From Clostridia bacterium (GTDB lineage: Bacteria; Bacillota; Clostridia; Christensenellales; CAG-138), in contig JAFOTD010000017.1 of the NCBI GenBank assembly GCA_017388175.1, forward strand, positions 14,940 through 78,939: DNA of 64,000 nucleotides, read 5' to 3'. Below, piece by piece: positions 47,281-55,869 of this stretch (the stretch's first letter is position 1; the number at the start of each line of letters is the position of its first letter). The position numbers were made by a program, and so were the translations under genes. The notes under the pieces were generated by a model. That model was not told the DNA's origin and searched no databases. It saw only the letters and a list, made by a program, of their open reading frames with translations.

Positions 47281-48843
47281 ATGGAAAGCAAACTCGGCTT
47301 GAACTTTGATCTGGTCAACGAGGCGCGTACGAGCGCGGCGCACGTCGCTGCCGACGTACAGCGCTTTATCGACCGGCACACCACCGTCACGGTTGAGCGC
47401 ACCGTCTGCCGACTCTTGGGCATCGACGGCGTCAACGACATGGACGTTCCCATGCCGAACGTCGTCGTCGATTACCTCTCCGCAAACGCGCTGCTGCCGA
47501 TGGGCGCGGCGTGGGTGATCGGCAACGCGATCCTCGAGACCGGTCTCGATCCGCAGGGCATTGCGGAAGCGATCGATAAGGGCGAGCTCGACCTCAACAA
47601 GCTCCCCGCCCATCCGGAGGCGGAGATCCGGAACGCGCTGCAGCCGTACGTCGATGCGACGATGGCGCGGATCAACAAAAACGTCGCAAATCGCAACGAG
47701 TATCTTGACCGCTTCGGCGACAAGCAGGGACCATACCTCTACATCATCGTCGCGACCGGCAACATCTACGAGGACATCATTCAGGCGAAGGCCGGCGCGA
47801 AGCAAGGCGCGGACATCATCGCCGTCATTCGTACGACGGGCCAGTCGCTTTTAGACTACGTTCCCTACGGCGCGACGACCGAGGGCTTCGGCGGCACCTA
47901 TGCAACGCAGGAAAACTTCCGCCTGATGCGCGCCGCGCTTGACGAGGTCGGCGAGGAGCAGCACCGCTATATCCGCCTTTGCAACTACTGCTCGGGCCTG
48001 TGCATGCCCGAGATCGCGGCGATGGGCGCGTTGGAACGGCTCGACGTCATGCTGAATGACGCGCTGTACGGCATTCTGTTCCGCGACATCAACATGCAGC
48101 GCACGATCGTCGATCAGTATTTTTCCCGCATCATCAACGGGTACGCGGGCGTCATCATCAACACCGGCGAGGACAACTACCTCACCACCGACGACGCGAT
48201 CACGAGCGCGCACACGGTGCTTGCTTCGCAGTTTTTGAACGAGGCGTTCGCAAAGTGCGCCGGCATGCGCGAGGAGCAGATGGGCCTCGGCCACGCGTTC
48301 GAGATGGACCCGGCGGTCGAAAACACGTTCCTCTACGAGCTTGCGCAGGCGCAGATGGCGCGCGAAATCTTCCCGAACGCGCCGCTGAAGTACATGCCGC
48401 CGACCAAGTATATGACCGGCAACATCTTCCGCGGACACATTCAGGACGCGCTGTTCAACATGGTCACGATCCTGACGAATCAAAAACTGCACCTCCTCGG
48501 CATGATGACCGAGGCGATCCACACGCCGTTTATGTCGGACCGCGCGCTGTCGATCGAGAACGCGCAGTACATCTTCCGCACGATGAAGGATCTCGGCAAC
48601 GAACTGACCTTCAAGGAGGGCGGCATCATCCGCGCCCGCGCAAACGAGGTCCTGACGAAGGCGACCGAGCTCTTGAAAGAGATCGAAAACCTCGGGCTTT
48701 TCACGACGCTTGAGCGCGGTATCTTCGCGGACGTCAAGCGCCCGAAGGACGGCGGCAAGGGTCTTGCAGGCGTCGTCGTCAAGGATGAAACCTACTTCAA
48801 TCCGTTTATCGAGATCATGAAAGGCAAGGTGGCGAACGAATGA
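47281..48843 (+). CDS. kamD: beta-/D-lysine 5,6-aminomutase alpha subunit
   Basis: 520 aa with a TIM-barrel-type KamD sequence (LNFDLVNEARTSAAHVAADVQRFIDRHTT...); followed by the overlapping B12-binding subunit. Confidence 0.85.
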   Translation: MESKLGLNFDLVNEARTSAAHVAADVQRFIDRHTTVTVERTVCRLLGIDGVNDMDVPMPNVVVDYLSANALLPMGAAWVIGNAILETGLDPQGIAEAIDKGELDLNKLPAHPEAEIRNALQPYVDATMARINKNVANRNEYLDRFGDKQGPYLYIIVATGNIYEDIIQAKAGAKQGADIIAVIRTTGQSLLDYVPYGATTEGFGGTYATQENFRLMRAALDEVGEEQHRYIRLCNYCSGLCMPEIAAMGALERLDVMLNDALYGILFRDINMQRTIVDQYFSRIINGYAGVIINTGEDNYLTTDDAITSAHTVLASQFLNEAFAKCAGMREEQMGLGHAFEMDPAVENTFLYELAQAQMAREIFPNAPLKYMPPTKYMTGNIFRGHIQDALFNMVTILTNQKLHLLGMMTEAIHTPFMSDRALSIENAQYIFRTMKDLGNELTFKEGGIIRARANEVLTKATELLKEIENLGLFTTLERGIFADVKRPKDGGKGLAGVVVKDETYFNPFIEIMKGKVANE

Positions 48844-49628
48844 GCAGCGGACTTTATAACACGCATAAAATTGAATTCGACACCACGCTGGACCTTACGC
48901 GCATAAAGCCGTACGGCGACACGATGAACGACGGCAAGGTGCAGCTGAGCTTTACCCTGCCCGTGAAAGACGACGAGCGCGGCGTGGAAGCGGCGCGGCA
49001 GATCGCAAAGAAGATGGGCCTCGACGAGCCGAACGTGACGTATCACGCCCCGCTCGACAAGGAGTTCACGTTTTACGTGGTCTACGGAAGCTGCGTGCAC
49101 ACCGTAAACTACGAGGACATTCACGTCATCACCGTCGAATCCGAGGTGATGAGCATGGAGGAAACGAACGACTATATCCGCGAGCACATCGGCCGCAAGG
49201 TCGTGATGGTGGGCGCTTCTACCGGTACCGACGCGCACACCGTTGGCATCGACGCGATCATGAACCGCAAGGGCTTTGCAGGACACTACGGCGTGGAGCG
49301 CTACGAGATGATCGAGGCGTACAACCTCGGCTCGCAGGTCAGCAACGAGGATTTCATCAAAAAGGCTTTGGAGGTCAACGCGGACGCGCTGCTCGTATCG
49401 CAGACGGTTACGCAGAAGGATATCCATATCCAGAACCTCACGAACCTCATCGAGCTGCTGGAGGCCGAAGGGCTTCGCGACCGCTTCGTGGTGGTCTGCG
49501 GCGGGCCGCGCATCACGCATGAGCTTGCGAAGGAGCTCGGCTTCGACGCGGGCTTCGGCGCGGGCACGTACGGCGACGACGTGGCGAGCTTCGTGGTCAC
49601 GGAAATGGTCAAACGCGGCATGAAGTGA
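48840..49628 (+). CDS. kamE: beta-/D-lysine 5,6-aminomutase beta subunit (cobalamin/PLP-binding)
   Basis: VVMVGASTGTDAHTVGIDAI (B12-binding DxHxxG-type region), 262 aa, ATGA overlap with kamD. Confidence 0.85.
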   Translation: MSSGLYNTHKIEFDTTLDLTRIKPYGDTMNDGKVQLSFTLPVKDDERGVEAARQIAKKMGLDEPNVTYHAPLDKEFTFYVVYGSCVHTVNYEDIHVITVESEVMSMEETNDYIREHIGRKVVMVGASTGTDAHTVGIDAIMNRKGFAGHYGVERYEMIEAYNLGSQVSNEDFIKKALEVNADALLVSQTVTQKDIHIQNLTNLIELLEAEGLRDRFVVVCGGPRITHELAKELGFDAGFGAGTYGDDVASFVVTEMVKRGMK

Positions 49629-49673: not shown

Positions 49674-50366
49674 ATGGCAAAGAAACCGGTCATCACTGCC
49701 GCCGAGGCAGCGAAAATGATTCCCGACGGCGCAACGATCATGTGCGGCGGCTTTTTGGGCTGCGGACAGGCGCTCGCCGTCGTTAAGGAGCTCGTGAAGC
49801 TCGGCACCAAGGATCTGACGCTGATCGCAAACGATATGGGCCGCGCGGTCGGTCCGAAGGGCGAAGAATTCTTCGGCATTGCGGAGCTGATCCACAACCA
49901 TCAGGTCAAGCGCGTGATCGCGACGCACGTCGGCATGACACCCGAGGTCGGCGAACAGATGAACGCCGGCACCCTCGAGGTCAACCTGATTCCGCAGGGC
50001 TCGATGGCGGAATGCGTCCGCGCGGGCGGCGCGGGACTGGGCGGCGTGCTCACCCCCGTCGGCGTCGACACCCTGATCGAGGAAAGCCCGCTTTGCCTCG
50101 GCAAGCAGGAGATCGACGGCAGACAGTATCTTCTGATGAAGCCGATCCACGCGGACTTCGCGCTGCTCGGCACCTATAAGTGCGACGAAGCCGGCAACTG
50201 CTGGTACAAGGGCACGATGCGTAACTTCAACACCGTCATGGCGACCGCGGCGGATACCGTCATTGCCGAGACCGAATACCTCGTTCCCATCGGCGAGATC
50301 GAGCCCGAGAACATCCACACCTACGGCATGTGCGTCGACTACATCGTGGAAGGAGAGAGAAAATAA
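49674..50366 (+). CDS. atoD: 3-oxoacid (butyryl-CoA:acetoacetate) CoA-transferase subunit A
   Basis: KPVITAAEAAKMIPDGATIMCGGFLGCGQ...; ATG 49674 follows GAAGGAGG. Confidence 0.9.
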   Translation: MAKKPVITAAEAAKMIPDGATIMCGGFLGCGQALAVVKELVKLGTKDLTLIANDMGRAVGPKGEEFFGIAELIHNHQVKRVIATHVGMTPEVGEQMNAGTLEVNLIPQGSMAECVRAGGAGLGGVLTPVGVDTLIEESPLCLGKQEIDGRQYLLMKPIHADFALLGTYKCDEAGNCWYKGTMRNFNTVMATAADTVIAETEYLVPIGEIEPENIHTYGMCVDYIVEGERK

Positions 50367-51034
50367 TGGATAAGTCTGAAATCAAAGCCTTTATCGCAAA
50401 GCGCTGCGCGAAAGAACTGAAGGACGGCGACGTCGTCAACCTCGGCATCGGCCTTCCCACCATGATCCCCGGCTTCCTTCCCGAAGGCGTTGACCTCGTC
50501 ATCCATGCCGAACTCGGCATCGTCGGCGCGGGCGCGACCCCGAAAGAGGGCGACGCGAACTACGATCCGTACCACGTCGTCGACGCGGGCGGCAACGTCG
50601 CGTCCGTGGCGTTCGGCGGCGGCTTCATCGACTCCGCGACGAACTTCGGTCTGATCCGCGGCGGTCACGTCGACGCGTGCTTCCTCGGCGCTTTGGAAGT
50701 CGATCAGGAAGGCAACCTCGCAAACTGGATCATCCCCGGCAAGCGTATGCCCGGCATGGGCGGCGCGATGGACCTGTGCGTCGGCGCAAAGAACTGCATC
50801 GTCTGCATGGAGCACACTGCAAAGGGCAATCCGAAGATCCTCGAAAAGTGCCGTCTGCCGCTGACCGCGTCCCACTGCGTCAAGAAGATCATCACCGAGA
50901 TGTGCGTGCTCGAAGTGACCGAAAACGGTCTTTTGATGACCGAGATCAACCCGGAATTTACCGTCGACCAGGTCAAGGCTGCCACCGCCGCCCCGATCAC
51001 GGTCGCGGAGAATCTGAAGTCCATGATCGACTGA
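50366..51034 (+). CDS. atoA: 3-oxoacid CoA-transferase subunit B
   Basis: IAKRCAKELKDGDVVNLGIGLPT...GMGGAMDL...; the start overlaps the atoD stop (TAATG). Confidence 0.9.
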   Translation: MDKSEIKAFIAKRCAKELKDGDVVNLGIGLPTMIPGFLPEGVDLVIHAELGIVGAGATPKEGDANYDPYHVVDAGGNVASVAFGGGFIDSATNFGLIRGGHVDACFLGALEVDQEGNLANWIIPGKRMPGMGGAMDLCVGAKNCIVCMEHTAKGNPKILEKCRLPLTASHCVKKIITEMCVLEVTENGLLMTEINPEFTVDQVKAATAAPITVAENLKSMID

Positions 51035-51077
51035 TCAAACGATACAGCAAAGCCCGACCGTTTGGCCGGGCTTTTTA
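50844..51077 (+). repeat. direct repeat copy A (atoA 3' end + terminator)
   Basis: Homologous to 52072-52305. Hand alignment of the coding part shows about 20 mismatches in about 186 nt, mostly at third-codon positions. Confidence 0.85.
51048..51077 (+). terminator. intrinsic terminator after atoA
   Basis: AAAGCCCGACC-gttt-GGCCGGGCTTTTTAT. Confidence 0.7.
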
Positions 51078-51112
51078 TGCGCGTAAGTGCAGATGATTCG
51101 GAGCTTCGGGAA

Positions 51113-51994
51113 TCACGCAGGGAAGCCGGTCGGCCGGGCAAACCCGACGGGACGGGCCTGTGTGCCAGCCGGGGCAGGCTGCGGCGCGATCGTTCGCGGC
51201 TGCTCCGGAACGCGTACGGGAATCTGCCTCGGCTGTTCCGGGATCGTGCGCGGCTCAGTCGAAAAGCGGTCCGAAAGCTTTTGCATCAGCCGCACGCCGT
51301 ACGCCTCGCGGCTTTGTGCGAGCACCGGCGCGCCCGTGCGTACGCGGTATACGGTGTAGAAGTGCTGTGTCGTGAGGAGCAGGAAGGCTCCCTGTCCAAG
51401 CAGGACCCTGCGGTGAAGCGTCGAGCGATACATGCAGATCTCCGTGTTCGGACATTTCTTGCCCCAGTATTTACGGAATTTGGCGTCGTCCTTCTTGAAG
51501 ATGCCGAACGTATGACGGTCCACGACGCCGTAGCGATAGCCGGTCGCGACGCCGTGATCCGTGTAAGAGAGCGCAACCGCATGCAGCTTTGTTCTGATAA
51601 AGTTCGAGGATGTGTTTATGTCGAGCGAATCGACCGTGACCGTCGGATGCGCGGCAAGCCACGCGTCCGCTTCCTCCACGCTTTCAAACGTGATCCGGCC
51701 CTTCACGGGATCCACTTCCTTCTTGACCTGCCGGAACACGTTGAACACGATCCCCGTCAGCATCAGCAGATCGTACCGCGCCTGTTCGCCGCGCGTGTCC
51801 AGTATCCGCATGCCGGTCCGGCTCTCGGCGGCAACGATCTCCCGCTCCAGGGTCGCAAGGCCGTTCTGCATCTCATCGTGACAGCCGTTGATCTCATTTG
51901 TCTTGATCTTCAGACACATCGAAAGGAGCCGCATCCGATCCGTTTGCGGCAGCCGTGCAAAGAATGTCGATACGACGTTTTGATTCAGTTCCAT
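51113..51994 (-). CDS. hypothetical protein, no recognisable family; proline-rich repetitive C-terminus
   Basis: 293 aa. Strong RBS GGGAGGAAACACC before the ATG. C-terminal tail EPRTIPEQPRQIPVRVPEQPRTIAPQPAPAG. The overlapping + strand ORF 51062..52030 is Arg-rich and shadow-like. Confidence 0.6.
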   Translation of the reverse strand: MELNQNVVSTFFARLPQTDRMRLLSMCLKIKTNEINGCHDEMQNGLATLEREIVAAESRTGMRILDTRGEQARYDLLMLTGIVFNVFRQVKKEVDPVKGRITFESVEEADAWLAAHPTVTVDSLDINTSSNFIRTKLHAVALSYTDHGVATGYRYGVVDRHTFGIFKKDDAKFRKYWGKKCPNTEICMYRSTLHRRVLLGQGAFLLLTTQHFYTVYRVRTGAPVLAQSREAYGVRLMQKLSDRFSTEPRTIPEQPRQIPVRVPEQPRTIAPQPAPAGTQARPVGFARPTGFPA

Positions 51995-52071
51995 GGTGTT
52001 TCCTCCCGTTTCTCTCCTGTTTTCACATAATATGACAAGCGAGACCGCGTTTTGGTTTTATGTTTTTTCAA

Positions 52072-52305
52072 AAAAGTCCCGTCTGCCGCTGACCGCTTCG
52101 CATTGCGTGAAGAAGATCATCACCGAGATGTGCGTGCTGGAAGTCACCGAAAACGGACTTCTGATGACCGAGATCAACCCGGAATTCACCGTAGAACAGG
52201 TCAAGGCCGCGACCGCCGCACCGATCACGGTCTCCGAGAACCTCAAGTCGATGACCGACTGAACGTAAGCATCACAAAAGCCCGACCGAAAGGCCGGGCT
52301 TTTTG
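52072..52305 (+). repeat. direct repeat copy B (orphan atoA 3' end + terminator)
   Basis: Encodes RLPLTASHCVKKIITEMCVLEVTENGLLMTEINPEFTVEQVKAATAAPITVSENLKSMTD*, against atoA ...TVDQVKAATAAPITVAENLKSMID*. It is followed by AAAGCCCGACC-gaaa-GGCCGGGCTTTTTGC. Confidence 0.85.
52078..52262 (+). pseudogene. displaced 3' fragment of an atoA homolog (last ~61 codons only)
   Basis: In-frame homology to the atoA C-terminus with no upstream atoA body. The ORF-track 51993..52262 N-terminus (MVFPPVSLLFSHNMTSETAFWFYVFSKK) is unrelated sequence. Confidence 0.75.
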
Positions 52306-52329
52306 CTTGTCTTACGGATATGCGTTTGC

Positions 52330-52851
52330 CTAATTTCGTTTCCTCTCGTCATTCGAATCAAGCTCACGCGCGGCGCTTTTCAAGGCAACTCCTAATGTTT
52401 TACCGGCGTAATTCGCGATTTTGTACCTCTGCGAAAAAACGAAAAGCATACTGGAGATACCGATGCTCAGAAAGATCGTAAACGTTCCGATTGCAATGCA
52501 TCCGATGGATTTTCCCTGAACGTCCTCATATGCATCCTGTCGCTCATAATATTCATCTGTAAAGCCGCTGAACTGACGGAACTGTTCTCTACTGAGTGAT
52601 TTCGCTTCCTTCTCCATGCCGGCTCCGATGACGATCAGCGTAATGCCGACGATCAGACCGATCACCAGAACCAGGATCGCAATCGGTTTTTGTTTTCGTC
52701 CCTTTCGTGAAAGCGCCGCTCCGTCGTTGCTGCGAACCATCTTCTGCGCGGGGGCATCCGTCGGTCTCACATTGTTCGGCACCGCCGTACCGCATCGCGC
52801 GCAGAATCTATTCCCTTCCGTGATTTCATAACCGCAATTTTCGCAATACAT
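52330..52851 (-). CDS. zinc-ribbon membrane protein
   Basis: N-terminal MYCENCGYEITEGNRFCARCG zinc ribbon plus two predicted TM helices. Confidence 0.55.
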   Translation of the reverse strand: MYCENCGYEITEGNRFCARCGTAVPNNVRPTDAPAQKMVRSNDGAALSRKGRKQKPIAILVLVIGLIVGITLIVIGAGMEKEAKSLSREQFRQFSGFTDEYYERQDAYEDVQGKSIGCIAIGTFTIFLSIGISSMLFVFSQRYKIANYAGKTLGVALKSAARELDSNDERKRN

Positions 52852-53101
52852 CTTTGTGCTCCTTATCCTTTTTTGTCTTTCGCTCTATAAGACACCGGAT
52901 TCCGCTTTCCGGTTTTATAATAATACTATTTTTTATCTGCTACGTCAATCTCCCCCATGGAAAGCATTTGATTTCCCCTCACAAGATAGGATCAAAACAC
53001 GTGGACGCCTTGCAGGGGCTGACATCCCCAGCAGCCCCAAATGTGATTTCTGTGTAACGCAAAAAAACGATCCCGGAGTTTTGCTCCGGGATTTTACATA
53101 C

Positions 53102-54004
53102 TCATTTCTTTTCGATCGGCAGCCAGATTTCGCACCAGTGCGAATTGTTGACCGCTTCGTTTCCGTCCTCGAACGGCCAGTGAATCACGTTGATCTCCGG
53201 CGCATTCCGCAGCTCGTAGCCGGACGACGGCAGCCATTCCGTCACAAGGCGCTTCCGAAGCCCGTCGACCAAATTGGTCGGAAACTTGCACCGTTCCGTT
53301 TCGCAAACTACATACAGCCCTTCCGGAATGGAGAGATGCTCATATCGCTTCGCAAATTCGCCGAGGTCCTCGTCAAAGTCCTCGAGCGCCCAGTGGGGCA
53401 GCTTTGCCGCAAAATAGAAATCATAGCCCTCGTCGTCAAAGTTCGTCAGCACGGCATACGTGGTCTCATGCTCCCGGCTCATGCCCTCCAACACGTATTG
53501 CTCCAGCCGCGTCTCGCAGGCAAAATAATGATCCTGATCCTGTTTCTCGTTTGGATCGCCGGTAAAGCGGCGTTTGAATCCGGTCAGCAGCATGTCCGGT
53601 TTCGTTTCGATTCTGTAATCCATCATGCTTCCTCCTTCAAAATGCAGATTGATCGTCATGGGAGAAAACGACCTGAGTTTTGCCCCGTCCATGCGCGCCC
53701 GGGACGGCGTTACCCCGTGGAATCTCTGGAATGCTCTTGCGAAGCTGTCCGGGCTTTCGTAGCCGTACTTGTATGCGACGTCGATGACCCTCGCCTTACC
53801 CTCCGCAAGCTCTGCGCCTGCAGCGGATAACCGCCGGTTCCGGATGTACTCGCCGAGCGTGTAGCCGCACAGAATGCTGAATGCGCGCTGAAAATGAAAC
53901 GAGGAATAATGGCTTTCCCCAGCAATGTTTTCTGTGTCCAGATCATCGGTCAGATGCGCTTCGATATAATCAATTGCCTTCTGTATTGCTTCGATCCATT
54001 CCAT
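53102..54004 (-). CDS. AraC-family transcriptional regulator with GyrI-like effector-binding domain
   Basis: N-terminal HTH (AIDYIEAHLTDDL...HYSSFHFQRAFSILCGYTLGEYIRNRRL...ESPDSFARAFQRFHGVTPS) and a C-terminal GyrI/Cass2-like half. Confidence 0.8.
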   Translation of the reverse strand: MEWIEAIQKAIDYIEAHLTDDLDTENIAGESHYSSFHFQRAFSILCGYTLGEYIRNRRLSAAGAELAEGKARVIDVAYKYGYESPDSFARAFQRFHGVTPSRARMDGAKLRSFSPMTINLHFEGGSMMDYRIETKPDMLLTGFKRRFTGDPNEKQDQDHYFACETRLEQYVLEGMSREHETTYAVLTNFDDEGYDFYFAAKLPHWALEDFDEDLGEFAKRYEHLSIPEGLYVVCETERCKFPTNLVDGLRKRLVTEWLPSSGYELRNAPEINVIHWPFEDGNEAVNNSHWCEIWLPIEKK

Positions 54005-54121
54005 ATCCGTTTCCTCCTGACGTGATCATCATACACAATCTTTGCACATTAGTCCCGATATTTTCTGCTCTTGTCTGTCGGCTCTCAAAAAACGATCCCG
54101 GAATGCTCCGGGATCGTTGTG

Positions 54122-54688
54122 TTATGATTCGATATTCAGTTTTGCGCCGCAATTCCAGCAAATACTTCGATTCCCCGGTTGGACTTCTCCACACGCCGAA
54201 CAGCGGATCTTGCCGCCTTCGACACGTGTTGCAGTTACTGATTCCTTCCCGGTGTTTTCCCGAATTTCCCTCAGAATTGCAGCATCTTGTTCTTTTTTTA
54301 TTTCTGCAGCGCGTTTTTCCTTCTGAATTGCTATTTGTTCAGCTTCGTTCCTTTGACGCAGAATTTTTGAAGCTTCGTTCCCTTTCTTCTTGATGACTAA
54401 TGCGATTAGAGAACTGCATCCGGCAAACACAATCAGTGCAGATACGGCCATCAGAACGTACTTCAGCGTCTTGTCCATATTTTTTTCCAAACCAAAGTTG
54501 ATCATAACAACGACTATGAGCACGGCAAGGAACGGAAACCCCATCAACAGTTTGAAATGTCCCCATCCCTGCGGATCAACTTCTTTCCATGCTTTCATGC
54601 GGTCTCTGCCCGCAAGCGGAATCATCACAATCCATTCTAAAAAAGCACATACTGCCAAAATACCGAATAAGACCAGAGCTGTAACCAT
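54122..54688 (-). CDS. membrane protein with C-terminal zinc ribbon
   Basis: Four TM-like segments, a charged coiled segment, and C-terminal CSACGEVQPGNRSICWNCG. RBS AAGGAG. Confidence 0.5.
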   Translation of the reverse strand: MVTALVLFGILAVCAFLEWIVMIPLAGRDRMKAWKEVDPQGWGHFKLLMGFPFLAVLIVVVMINFGLEKNMDKTLKYVLMAVSALIVFAGCSSLIALVIKKKGNEASKILRQRNEAEQIAIQKEKRAAEIKKEQDAAILREIRENTGKESVTATRVEGGKIRCSACGEVQPGNRSICWNCGAKLNIES

Positions 54689-54707
54689 ATTTTATCTCCT
54701 TAACTAA

Positions 54708-54737
54708 GAAACTGCAAATCCAAGGATTTACAGTTTC
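54708..54737 (-). terminator. long hairpin after etfA (weak U-tract; possible partial terminator or RNA stabiliser)
   Basis: Minus strand reads GAAACTGTAAATCC-tt-GGATTTGCAGTTTC (14-bp stem, one mismatch). Confidence 0.4.
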
Positions 54738-54750
54738 TTTTGTGTTTCTT

Positions 54751-55869
54751 TTATTTCGCCGCTTTGGCAGCGCGGATGGATTCGATCAGCTCCGGAACGA
54801 CCTTGAAGAGGTCGCCCACAATGCCGTAGTCCGCACATTCGAAGATCGGGGCGGTCTCGTTCTTGTTGACCGCAATGATGCATTCGGATTCCTGCATGCC
54901 CGCCTTGTGCTGGATCGCGCCGGAGATGCCGAGCGCGACGTACACCTTCGGATGCACGGTCTTGCCGGTCTGTCCGACCTGATGGTCCGCGCCGATCCAG
55001 CCCGCGTCCACGCAGGCACGGGAAGCGCCGACCACGCCGCCGAGCTCGGAAGCAAGCTCTTCGGCAAGCGCAAGACCCTTTTCGACGTCCTTACTGATGC
55101 CGCGGCCGACGGAGACGATGAAGTCCGCGCCGATCAGATCGACGAGCTTCTTCGCCGCCTTGACGACCTCGACCACTTCGGTCTTGATGTCTTCCGGCTT
55201 CAGATCGAATTCGGGATGGAGAATCTGGGCGGTTCTCGGATTCTCGCGCTTCTTCATAACGCCCGGACGGACCGTCGCCATCGCGGGGCGGAAGCGCGGG
55301 CAGATGATCGACGCCATGAGGTGACCGCCGAATGCCGGACGGGTCATCTTGAGATCGCGCGCGACGGAGTGATCCGCGCCCGCGAGCCGTACGCTCTTGG
55401 TGCGCTCGATGCGATCCTCGGGAAGTGTGGAAGCTTCACGCAGGAAGTTCTGGTAGTTTTCGAGATCGATATCGAGGTGCGTGCAGTCCGCGCAAAGACC
55501 GGTGTGCAGACGAGCTGCGCAGCGCGGCGCGAGGTCTCTGCCGATCGTCGATGCGCCGAACAGGAGGATTTCGGGCTTATACGCCTCAACCGCATCGACG
55601 ATGACCTTGGTGTACGCGTCGGTGGTGAACGTGCCGAGAAGCGGGCTGTTATAGACATAGACCTTGTCCGCGCCGTATTTGCCGAGTTCCGGCGCGATGC
55701 CGTCGACATTGTCGCCGAGCAGAATGCCGCAAAGCTCCACGCCGAGCTCGTCGGCAAGCTTTCTGCCCTCGGAGATAAGTTCGAAGGTGGTCGGCATCAT
55801 TTCGCCGTTGCGCTGTTCACAGAAGACCCAAACGTTCTTGAAGGCTTCGATTTCGCTGCTGTTAAACAT
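54751..55869 (-). CDS. etfA: electron transfer flavoprotein alpha subunit
   Basis: C-terminal FAD domain ...GASRACVDAGWIGADHQVGQTGKTVHPKVYVALGISGAIQHKAGM. Confidence 0.9.
   Translation of the reverse strand: MFNSSEIEAFKNVWVFCEQRNGEMMPTTFELISEGRKLADELGVELCGILLGDNVDGIAPELGKYGADKVYVYNSPLLGTFTTDAYTKVIVDAVEAYKPEILLFGASTIGRDLAPRCAARLHTGLCADCTHLDIDLENYQNFLREASTLPEDRIERTKSVRLAGADHSVARDLKMTRPAFGGHLMASIICPRFRPAMATVRPGVMKKRENPRTAQILHPEFDLKPEDIKTEVVEVVKAAKKLVDLIGADFIVSVGRGISKDVEKGLALAEELASELGGVVGASRACVDAGWIGADHQVGQTGKTVHPKVYVALGISGAIQHKAGMQESECIIAVNKNETAPIFECADYGIVGDLFKVVPELIESIRAAKAAK

Follow-up and report, generated by a model that had tools for sequence, protein, structure and literature searches.

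We have analysed a 64,000-nucleotide stretch of the genome of a rumen Clostridia bacterium (GenBank assembly GCA_017388175.1, contig JAFOTD010000017.1, positions 14,940 to 78,939; referred to below as the window, whose own coordinates are used throughout), and in particular the end of its atoA gene, which occurs there twice, on either side of one short inserted gene. On the plus strand the window carries, according to domain calls with Pfam and NCBIfam, a lysine-fermentation operon comprising kce, kdd, kamA, kamD, kamE, atoD and atoA. The final gene, atoA (50366 to 51034, plus strand), encodes the beta subunit of a 3-oxoacid/acetate CoA-transferase (PF01144, 1e-38; TIGR02428, 1e-81); it is intact, its ATG overlaps the stop codon of atoD, and its product shares 95-99% amino-acid identity with its relatives. 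A butyryl-CoA operon, with genes for a crotonase, a 3-hydroxyacyl-CoA dehydrogenase and an acyl-CoA dehydrogenase followed by etfB and etfA, converges from the right and ends at the etfA stop codon at 54751. The region between the two operons (51077 to 54750) is variable among relatives and here contains the inserted gene, which we call the cargo gene, the second copy of the atoA end, a zinc-ribbon membrane protein gene (ZnR1; 52330 to 52851, minus strand; PF13240), the gene for an AraC/GyrI regulator, and a further membrane protein gene, ZnR2.

A sequence-only reading of this DNA had proposed that the atoA 3' end and its terminator are present twice, about 1.23 kb apart, and alignment bears this out. 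An ungapped direct repeat of 233 nt occupies 50844-51076 and 52072-52304 (offset 1228 nt), with 200 of 233 positions (86%) identical, and either copy consists of atoA codons 160-222, the stop codon, a 14-nt spacer and the terminator hairpin. The left copy, c1 (50844 to 51076, plus strand), is the end that atoA uses and includes hairpin 1; the right copy, c2 (52072 to 52304, plus strand), is an atoA 3' fragment without a start of its own and includes hairpin 2. Within the coding part (50846-51034) the copies agree at 168 of 189 positions (88.9%), and when compared from 50843 they differ in 21 of 63 codons. The 22 changed bases fall at 17 third, three first and two second codon positions, so that the predominance of third-position differences described earlier stands, whereas the amino-acid differences number four rather than three (C/S at the extreme edge of the repeat, D/E, A/S and I/T). 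By the Nei-Gojobori method the nonsynonymous divergence (dN) is 0.029 and the synonymous divergence (dS) 0.54, giving a dN/dS of about 0.05. The spacers match at 5 of 14 positions and the hairpins at 25 of 28, with stems that are identical, as had been read from the sequence, and loops of TTT and AAA, respectively. The longest run of identity common to the two copies is 29 nt, and both begin with AAAAGT (50844-50849 and 52072-52077). Between them lie 995 nt of unique DNA (51077 to 52071) that match only contigs of the same species and hold a single open reading frame (ORF), the cargo gene (51113 to 51994, minus strand); the earlier description of an insert of about 1 kb with one minus-strand gene and no integrase or transposase thus holds, and the protein has no match in Pfam, PHROGs, PADLOC or NCBIfam.

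When 185,579 species genomes were scanned with AtoA, 80 loci were found, among them a close clade of 14 rumen Clostridia/Christensenellales metagenome-assembled genomes (L003-L016) that are about 90% identical to the window in the flanking genes. The insert, ZnR1 and a second atoA fragment are found in none of these 14, and both the insert and a second atoA fragment are missing from all 80 related genomes. Mean identity within the close clade is 92.3% over the first 480 nt of atoA and 86.8% over the last 189 nt. The 88.9% identity of c1 and c2 therefore corresponds to ordinary between-species divergence for this segment, and such divergence, taken with a dN/dS of 0.05, excludes decay after a duplication in place, as the sequence-only reading had argued. 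Only three bases of c2 have no counterpart in any relative, and one of these (TGC to TCC) lies at the junction; nearly all of the divergence hence predates the juxtaposition of the copies. That the repeat arose by tandem duplication in place, followed by decay or gene conversion, or that it is an assembly artefact, is a reading to which we give almost no credence. Slippage at microhomology can yield direct repeats, and the left end of one contig (L001, described below) is odd, but an untranslated fragment cannot produce a dN/dS of 0.05 at a dS of 0.54, c2 is nearly free of private changes, and the cargo gene is present once, not twice. Independent assemblies also speak against this reading, which is refuted for practical purposes.

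These assemblies come from ENA and Logan samples, in which contigs of the same species were retrieved by exact look-up of the ZnR1 and AtoA proteins. At least nine contigs, from different samples and assemblers, have the same arrangement, with 99.2-100% identity to the window across 50366-52900, and the majority include both junctions together with an intact atoA. All retrieved contigs show the gene order atoA, cargo gene, atoA fragment, ZnR1, AraC, ZnR2, etfA. Since the structure recurs on at least nine independently assembled contigs, an assembly artefact is excluded, and the insertion is fixed in the sampled population. Recombination between c1 and c2 could remove the insert, though this should be rare; no variant of this kind was found among the retrieved contigs. 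We note that one contig, L001 (ENA ERZ28018722, k141_2033983), has the same insert and c2 but diverges from atoA upstream of 50893 (codon 177), and that its last 127 nt are GC-rich and unrelated, matching neither the window nor any of the loci. Because seven other contigs run on into atoA upstream of c1, three of them covering the whole gene, we regard this as probably a chimeric contig end, although it could be a rare rearranged variant.

The two copies can each be followed into another lineage. A metagenome scan for the c1 stop codon, spacer and hairpin yielded a single 87.8-kb contig that matches the c1 end (L096; JAEEGJ010002592.1). This contig is 90.7% identical to the window across the upstream genes and 91.7% identical over the first 480 nt of atoA, whereas from 50918 to 51080 (plus strand) it matches at 162 of 163 positions, in a lineage otherwise about 91% identical. 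The match breaks off after 51080, just past the run of T that follows the hairpin, where homology between lineages ends. Over 50918-51034 c1 has one mismatch to L096 and 10-23 mismatches to each of 14 other relatives, and from 50929 onward all 14 of the sites that distinguish c1 from c2 are c1-like in L096. At five of seven sites L096 resembles the left part of c2, and these are common clade alleles; since the left part of c2 carries such alleles, a reciprocal-chimera test for a crossover near 50920 was discarded as evidence. On the side of c2, another lineage (L095; Logan ERR13737387) encodes a ZnR1 protein that is 92% identical and is colinear with the window over 2013 nt (94.5% identical) that begin inside c2 and take in the spacer, the hairpin, ZnR1 and AraC, so that the c2 type of spacer belongs beside ZnR1. 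A sliding-window comparison of atoD-atoA with relatives gave no sharp breakpoint at 50844, divergence being uneven throughout. These comparisons show that c1 and c2 come from two lineages, in agreement with the earlier proposal that both evolved as functional atoA ends apart from one another, with a dN/dS of about 0.05, the L096 match and the L095 match as its grounds.

This arrangement is best explained as the trace that one gain of a gene has left at a recombination hot spot. When a circular molecule joins the chromosome by a single crossover, the classic outcome is foreign DNA enclosed between two copies of the homologous segment, one from each parent, and this is what the locus shows. At somewhat better than even confidence we therefore lean towards Campbell-type insertion of a donor fragment that had circularised, about 1.23 kb in length; c1 would then be the imported end and c2 the resident one. 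In the starting state the resident atoA would have had a c2-type end and terminator, followed by ZnR1, AraC and further genes up to etfA. A fragment from a related lineage of the same clade would then have entered, bringing the last ~62 codons of atoA, the terminator and, on the minus strand, the cargo gene together with a ribosome-binding site and a promoter region of its own. Integration would have taken place through the 233 bp of atoA homology, most likely by a single crossover of the circularised fragment resolved at or near the left edge of homology, where both partners have AAAAGT; this hexamer may mark the closure of the donor circle, the resolution of the crossover, or both, and joining at the AAAAGT microhomology would be an alternative. 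The resulting DNA has the 5' part of the resident atoA in frame with the c1 end and its terminator, followed by the cargo gene and then c2. The imported end would have restored atoA, and the old end would have been displaced as a fragment without promoter or start codon. We also note that gene callers have annotated in public assemblies a 76-aa ORF (51993-52262, plus strand) that covers c2; as no ribosome-binding site precedes its ATG, the displaced atoA fragment has in all likelihood been mistaken for a gene.

Differences among strains of this species bear on the direction of the event. Three strains (L085, L087 and L088; 99.2-99.8% identical to the window) differ from it almost only in short dense tracts, at 48366-48531, 49217-49283, 50222-50289, 50363-50392, 50596-50674 and 50818-50917, and such clustering reads as the signature of frequent short homologous imports from diverged relatives. 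After the insertion, short-tract homologous recombination would thus have kept reshuffling the atoA end, where strains differ at 50596-50917. In L088, whose insert and c2 are identical to those of the window, 20 sites differ within 50596-50917, and the L096-like stretch covers 50843-51080, with two mismatches over its 238 nt, against 16 in the 143 nt before it. The L096-like span in this strain is the span of the repeat unit, as is predicted by the insertion of a unit that starts at 50844. The window strain itself has rare alleles (T50818, C50872 and G50917) that span the left boundary of the repeat, and that are most simply explained by a later import, its source being an as yet unsampled lineage.

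These rare alleles can also be turned the other way. With such alleles on both sides of the left boundary, the left part of c1 is continuous with upstream atoA, as would fit a reversal in which c1 is the resident end and the cargo gene and c2 were imported together by a crossover at the right edge of the repeat, in the terminator; a circle-crossover model permits any crossover point. We consider this reversal improbable, as the separate lineage L095 has the c2 spacer and terminator running on into ZnR1, the right part of c1 is the very segment with a near-identical foreign match, and the whole of c1 is L096-like in L088.

Linear donor DNA offers another route to the same product. In homology-facilitated illegitimate recombination (HFIR), a homologous crossover within atoA would be accompanied by a join of the upstream end of the cargo gene to the resident atoA at AAAAGT. 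A one-sided homologous anchor is at hand, the right junction has 6 nt of microhomology, and the model has already been proposed for the displacement of 3' ends in type VI secretion system (T6SS) and Rhs loci (PMC5361080). We judge it unlikely here, though deserving of consideration: HFIR should delete the recipient DNA between the anchor and the join, whereas the recipient segment is duplicated (compare PMC3240628), and it does not predict donor-like sequence from the repeat boundary on, as seen in L088.

Several points weigh against a Campbell-type insertion in the direction we favour. The 1.2-kb circle is hypothetical, and no circular donor sequence was found. For a RecA-type crossover, resolution within the first ~13 nt of a 233-nt, 86%-identical homology is not what one would most expect. 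This species may have exported the sequence that L096 shares almost exactly, rather than imported it. The L095 contig ends 49 codons into the atoA end and could carry the same insertion, in which case its colinearity with c2 is silent on direction. The haplotype of L088 at 50843-50917 is common in the clade (one to three mismatches to several relatives), so that the agreement of the repeat boundary with the start of the L096-like stretch is no more than suggestive. Finally, neither a donor arrangement (atoA, terminator and cargo gene without c2) nor an empty resident site (an intact c2-type atoA followed by ZnR1) was found, and a metagenome scan for the c2-ZnR1 junction gave no match. The direction of transfer, the circular intermediate and the crossover point are thus what we infer from the present arrangement of the DNA.

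The sequence-only reading had gone further and likened the arrangement to an island integrated site-specifically, in an attachment-site-like manner, at the 3' end of a conserved gene. The part of this proposal that has foreign DNA integrating at the 3' end of atoA with a replacement end is supported; the site-specific part is not. Phage 21 and e14 integrate in the 3' end of E. coli icd and carry a substitute icd end; these are prophage elements of 15-40 kb with an integrase and a defined att core, and they insert repeatedly at the same site. The atoA locus resembles them in that the gene continues into a substitute 3' end while its native end lies beyond the insert, and in that most of the differences are synonymous; if a recombinase had acted in trans or been lost, a one-gene remnant could have been left, and the short identical AAAAGT at the left edge of both copies would fit as well. 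It differs in that the insert is 1 kb long with one gene. No integrase, transposase or resolvase was found in or next to the insert, and there was no integrase among the genes called up to 8 kb on either side; the sole ORF of the insert has no match in Pfam, PHROGs, PADLOC or NCBIfam, nor its structural model in the PDB or BFVD. The cargo gene fills the insert, leaving 36 nt on one side and 77 nt on the other, so that a deletion remnant would need two very neat end points. Only the 6 nt of AAAAGT are shared at the junction, no insertion at codon 160 is present in any of the 80 related genomes, and the variable DNA of other lineages starts past the terminator. A search of phage and plasmid collections with the cargo gene (tblastn) gave no match. 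The distant relatives of the cargo gene lie in unrelated gene contexts without atoA fragments or flanking repeats. With this evidence we find it hard to credit site-specific integration.

Other kinds of element were considered and do not fit. An insertion sequence, a miniature inverted-repeat transposable element (MITE) or another transposon does not match, as there is no transposase and the insert has no terminal inverted repeats, the sole inverted-repeat pair near its ends being the two terminator hairpins. An integron gene cassette does not match either: the hairpin is the clade-wide conserved terminator of atoA; the cargo gene, moreover, is opposite in orientation to atoA and has its own ribosome-binding site. 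The idea of the hairpin as a repeated recombination site was rejected, since the hairpin is met with only as the terminator of atoA, and relatives have conserved it with variants of the stem.

Hairpin 1 (51049 to 51076) has the stem GCCCGACCG/GGCCGGGC and the loop TTT, and both hairpins are preceded by a run of A and followed by a run of T. The same hairpin pattern was not found elsewhere in the window beyond the two repeat sites (no match expected by chance). Both stems have on the plus strand an A-C mismatch (51051-51073 and 52279-52301), a variant also seen in L003, L009, L095 and L096; in minus-strand RNA this becomes a G-U pair, which makes the hairpins about 5 kcal/mol more stable for minus-strand transcripts. 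Predicted folding energies are -15.2 kcal/mol (plus strand) and -20.7 kcal/mol (minus strand) for hairpin 1, and -16.8 kcal/mol (plus strand) and -20.9 kcal/mol (minus-strand RNA) for hairpin 2. Given the A and T runs and the greater stability on the minus strand, the hairpins could also terminate the cargo gene and ZnR1. Hairpin 1 thus probably terminates transcription in both directions, of atoA and of the cargo gene, and hairpin 2 probably serves as the terminator of ZnR1, so that each of the three transcription units would still end at a two-way hairpin after the insertion. A search of the region with Rfam gave weak terminator-like matches only, below threshold, and no known RNA family in the insert.

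The cargo gene encodes a protein of 293 aa with a core of about 230 aa and a proline-rich disordered tail. Its 5' region (51995 to 52071, minus strand) extends as far as the AAAAGT junction and has, in front of the ATG, the ribosome-binding site GGGAGGAAACACC; upstream of the gene, TGTCATATT may be an extended -10 element and part of its promoter, and a promoter scan of this region gave no consensus site. The G+C content at third codon positions is 76% for the cargo gene, 78-85% for core genes, 56% for ZnR1 and 44% for ZnR2; the resemblance of the cargo gene to the core genes fits a donor within the clade. A word-indexed search of 5.8 billion proteins with the cargo protein returned only itself, and a full HMMER scan of 1.84 billion representative proteins gave 18 weak relatives. 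The alignment of this family defines the core of about 230 aa, with invariant A109, W112, Y155, W177 and P182. As we read the sequences, three relatives have a hydrophobic stretch after the core that is probably membrane-spanning, and two of these have an additional domain. AlphaFold2 run on the single sequence gave an unusable model (predicted local distance difference test, pLDDT, of 39); run with the family alignment it gave a confident one (pLDDT 86; predicted template modelling score, pTM, 0.72), which predicts a helical N-terminal part, an alpha/beta domain and a disordered proline-rich tail. A search of the PDB and BFVD with this model gave no significant match.

Three members of the cargo family are fused to a zinc ribbon. 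We note that links to zinc ribbons (PF13240) recur around the family (L097-L099), one relative (P0004) lying in a cluster of four zinc-ribbon proteins, and that the neighbour of the cargo gene in the window is the zinc-ribbon membrane protein gene ZnR1. The association may be a functional link or a coincidence. Joint arrival of the cargo gene and ZnR1 was considered and is not supported: c2 lies between them, and ZnR1-AraC is shared with L095. ZnR1, the neighbour on the resident side, is present on all contigs of this species.

The gap between atoA and etfA is, when relatives are compared, a hot spot of gene exchange. Between-lineage homology stops directly after the T run of the atoA terminator, and in all other lineages the variable DNA begins past the terminator, never inside atoA; the terminator hairpin itself is conserved across the clade, with stem variants. 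The gap ranges from 81 nt to about 3 kb in relatives, and its contents differ: it is empty (81-99 nt) in L003 and L008, holds a gene for an Mrr-type restriction endonuclease in L004, L009, L010, L016 and L096, an AraC/GyrI regulator in L006, L010, L013, L016, L095 and the window, a DUF2087 protein together with a relative of ZnR2 in L007, and an unknown gene in L012. ZnR2 (54122-54688, minus strand) encodes a membrane protein of 188 aa that has a C-terminal CxxC...CxxC motif and no Pfam match, and its relative in the same gap of L007 is 76% identical; it is likely to be a further gene acquired at this hot spot. We also note that a CAATTCATG-like motif, such as GCAATTCACGGCGAAGCCAATTCATGACCGCAGGTCAATTCATGGCG, recurs several times, spaced apart, in the variable region just downstream of the atoA terminator in L012, L013, L016 and L096, and that the window has none.

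Several known systems leave comparable traces. In E. coli, single crossovers of circular molecules at lacZ duplicated 109-950 bp of the homologous segment, whereas HFIR is expected to leave deletions (PMC3240628). The atoA locus is like such Campbell-type products in that the insert is flanked by a direct duplication (233 bp here) and no dedicated recombinase is needed. It is unlike the lacZ case in being a natural event between alleles that had diverged by 11-14%, so that the copies differ, in that the circle is deduced from its product, and in that the target gene stays functional. At T6SS effector, Rhs and contact-dependent inhibition (CDI) loci, HFIR and "3'-end (C-terminal) displacement" have been proposed (PMC5361080 and references therein). 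There, as here, DNA anchored in the conserved part of a gene brings a new 3' end and cargo, the old end becomes a downstream orphan, and no integrase is involved; at those loci, though, it is variable toxin domains and their immunity genes that are displaced, and they accumulate in arrays, whereas the two atoA ends are equivalent (four amino-acid differences), the gene is metabolic and the event single. The locus also resembles the variable islets found between convergent operons, with lineage-specific genes between atoA and etfA and an adjoining atoA end that is mosaic and more diverged (86.8% against 92.3%), but ordinary double-crossover exchange leaves no duplicated flank, and here there is one.

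It could be imagined that the ~1.23-kb unit is itself a minimal mobile cassette without a recombinase, homing to a conserved gene by host recombination through the atoA end it carries. Were this so, insertion would be harmless to atoA, clean loss would be possible by recombination between the copies, and there would be a general route for the spread of single genes among rumen Clostridia. We think this very doubtful. Instead, the arrangement clearly exemplifies a kind of recombination scar that was known before, and it represents neither a new mechanism nor a new kind of element. What it offers is an unusually readable natural record of the entry of a gene into a bacterial chromosome without the machinery of a mobile element. 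The two parental alleles of the anchor have both survived at one locus, a near-identical relative of the donor allele (L096) has been sampled, the L095 lineage shares the c2-ZnR1-AraC block, and strains of the same species record later tracts of recombination. The record flags a small uncharacterised protein family without a detectable structural relative, and it marks the gap between atoA and etfA, where the lysine-fermentation and butyryl-CoA operons meet, as a hot spot of exchange in uncultured rumen Clostridia.

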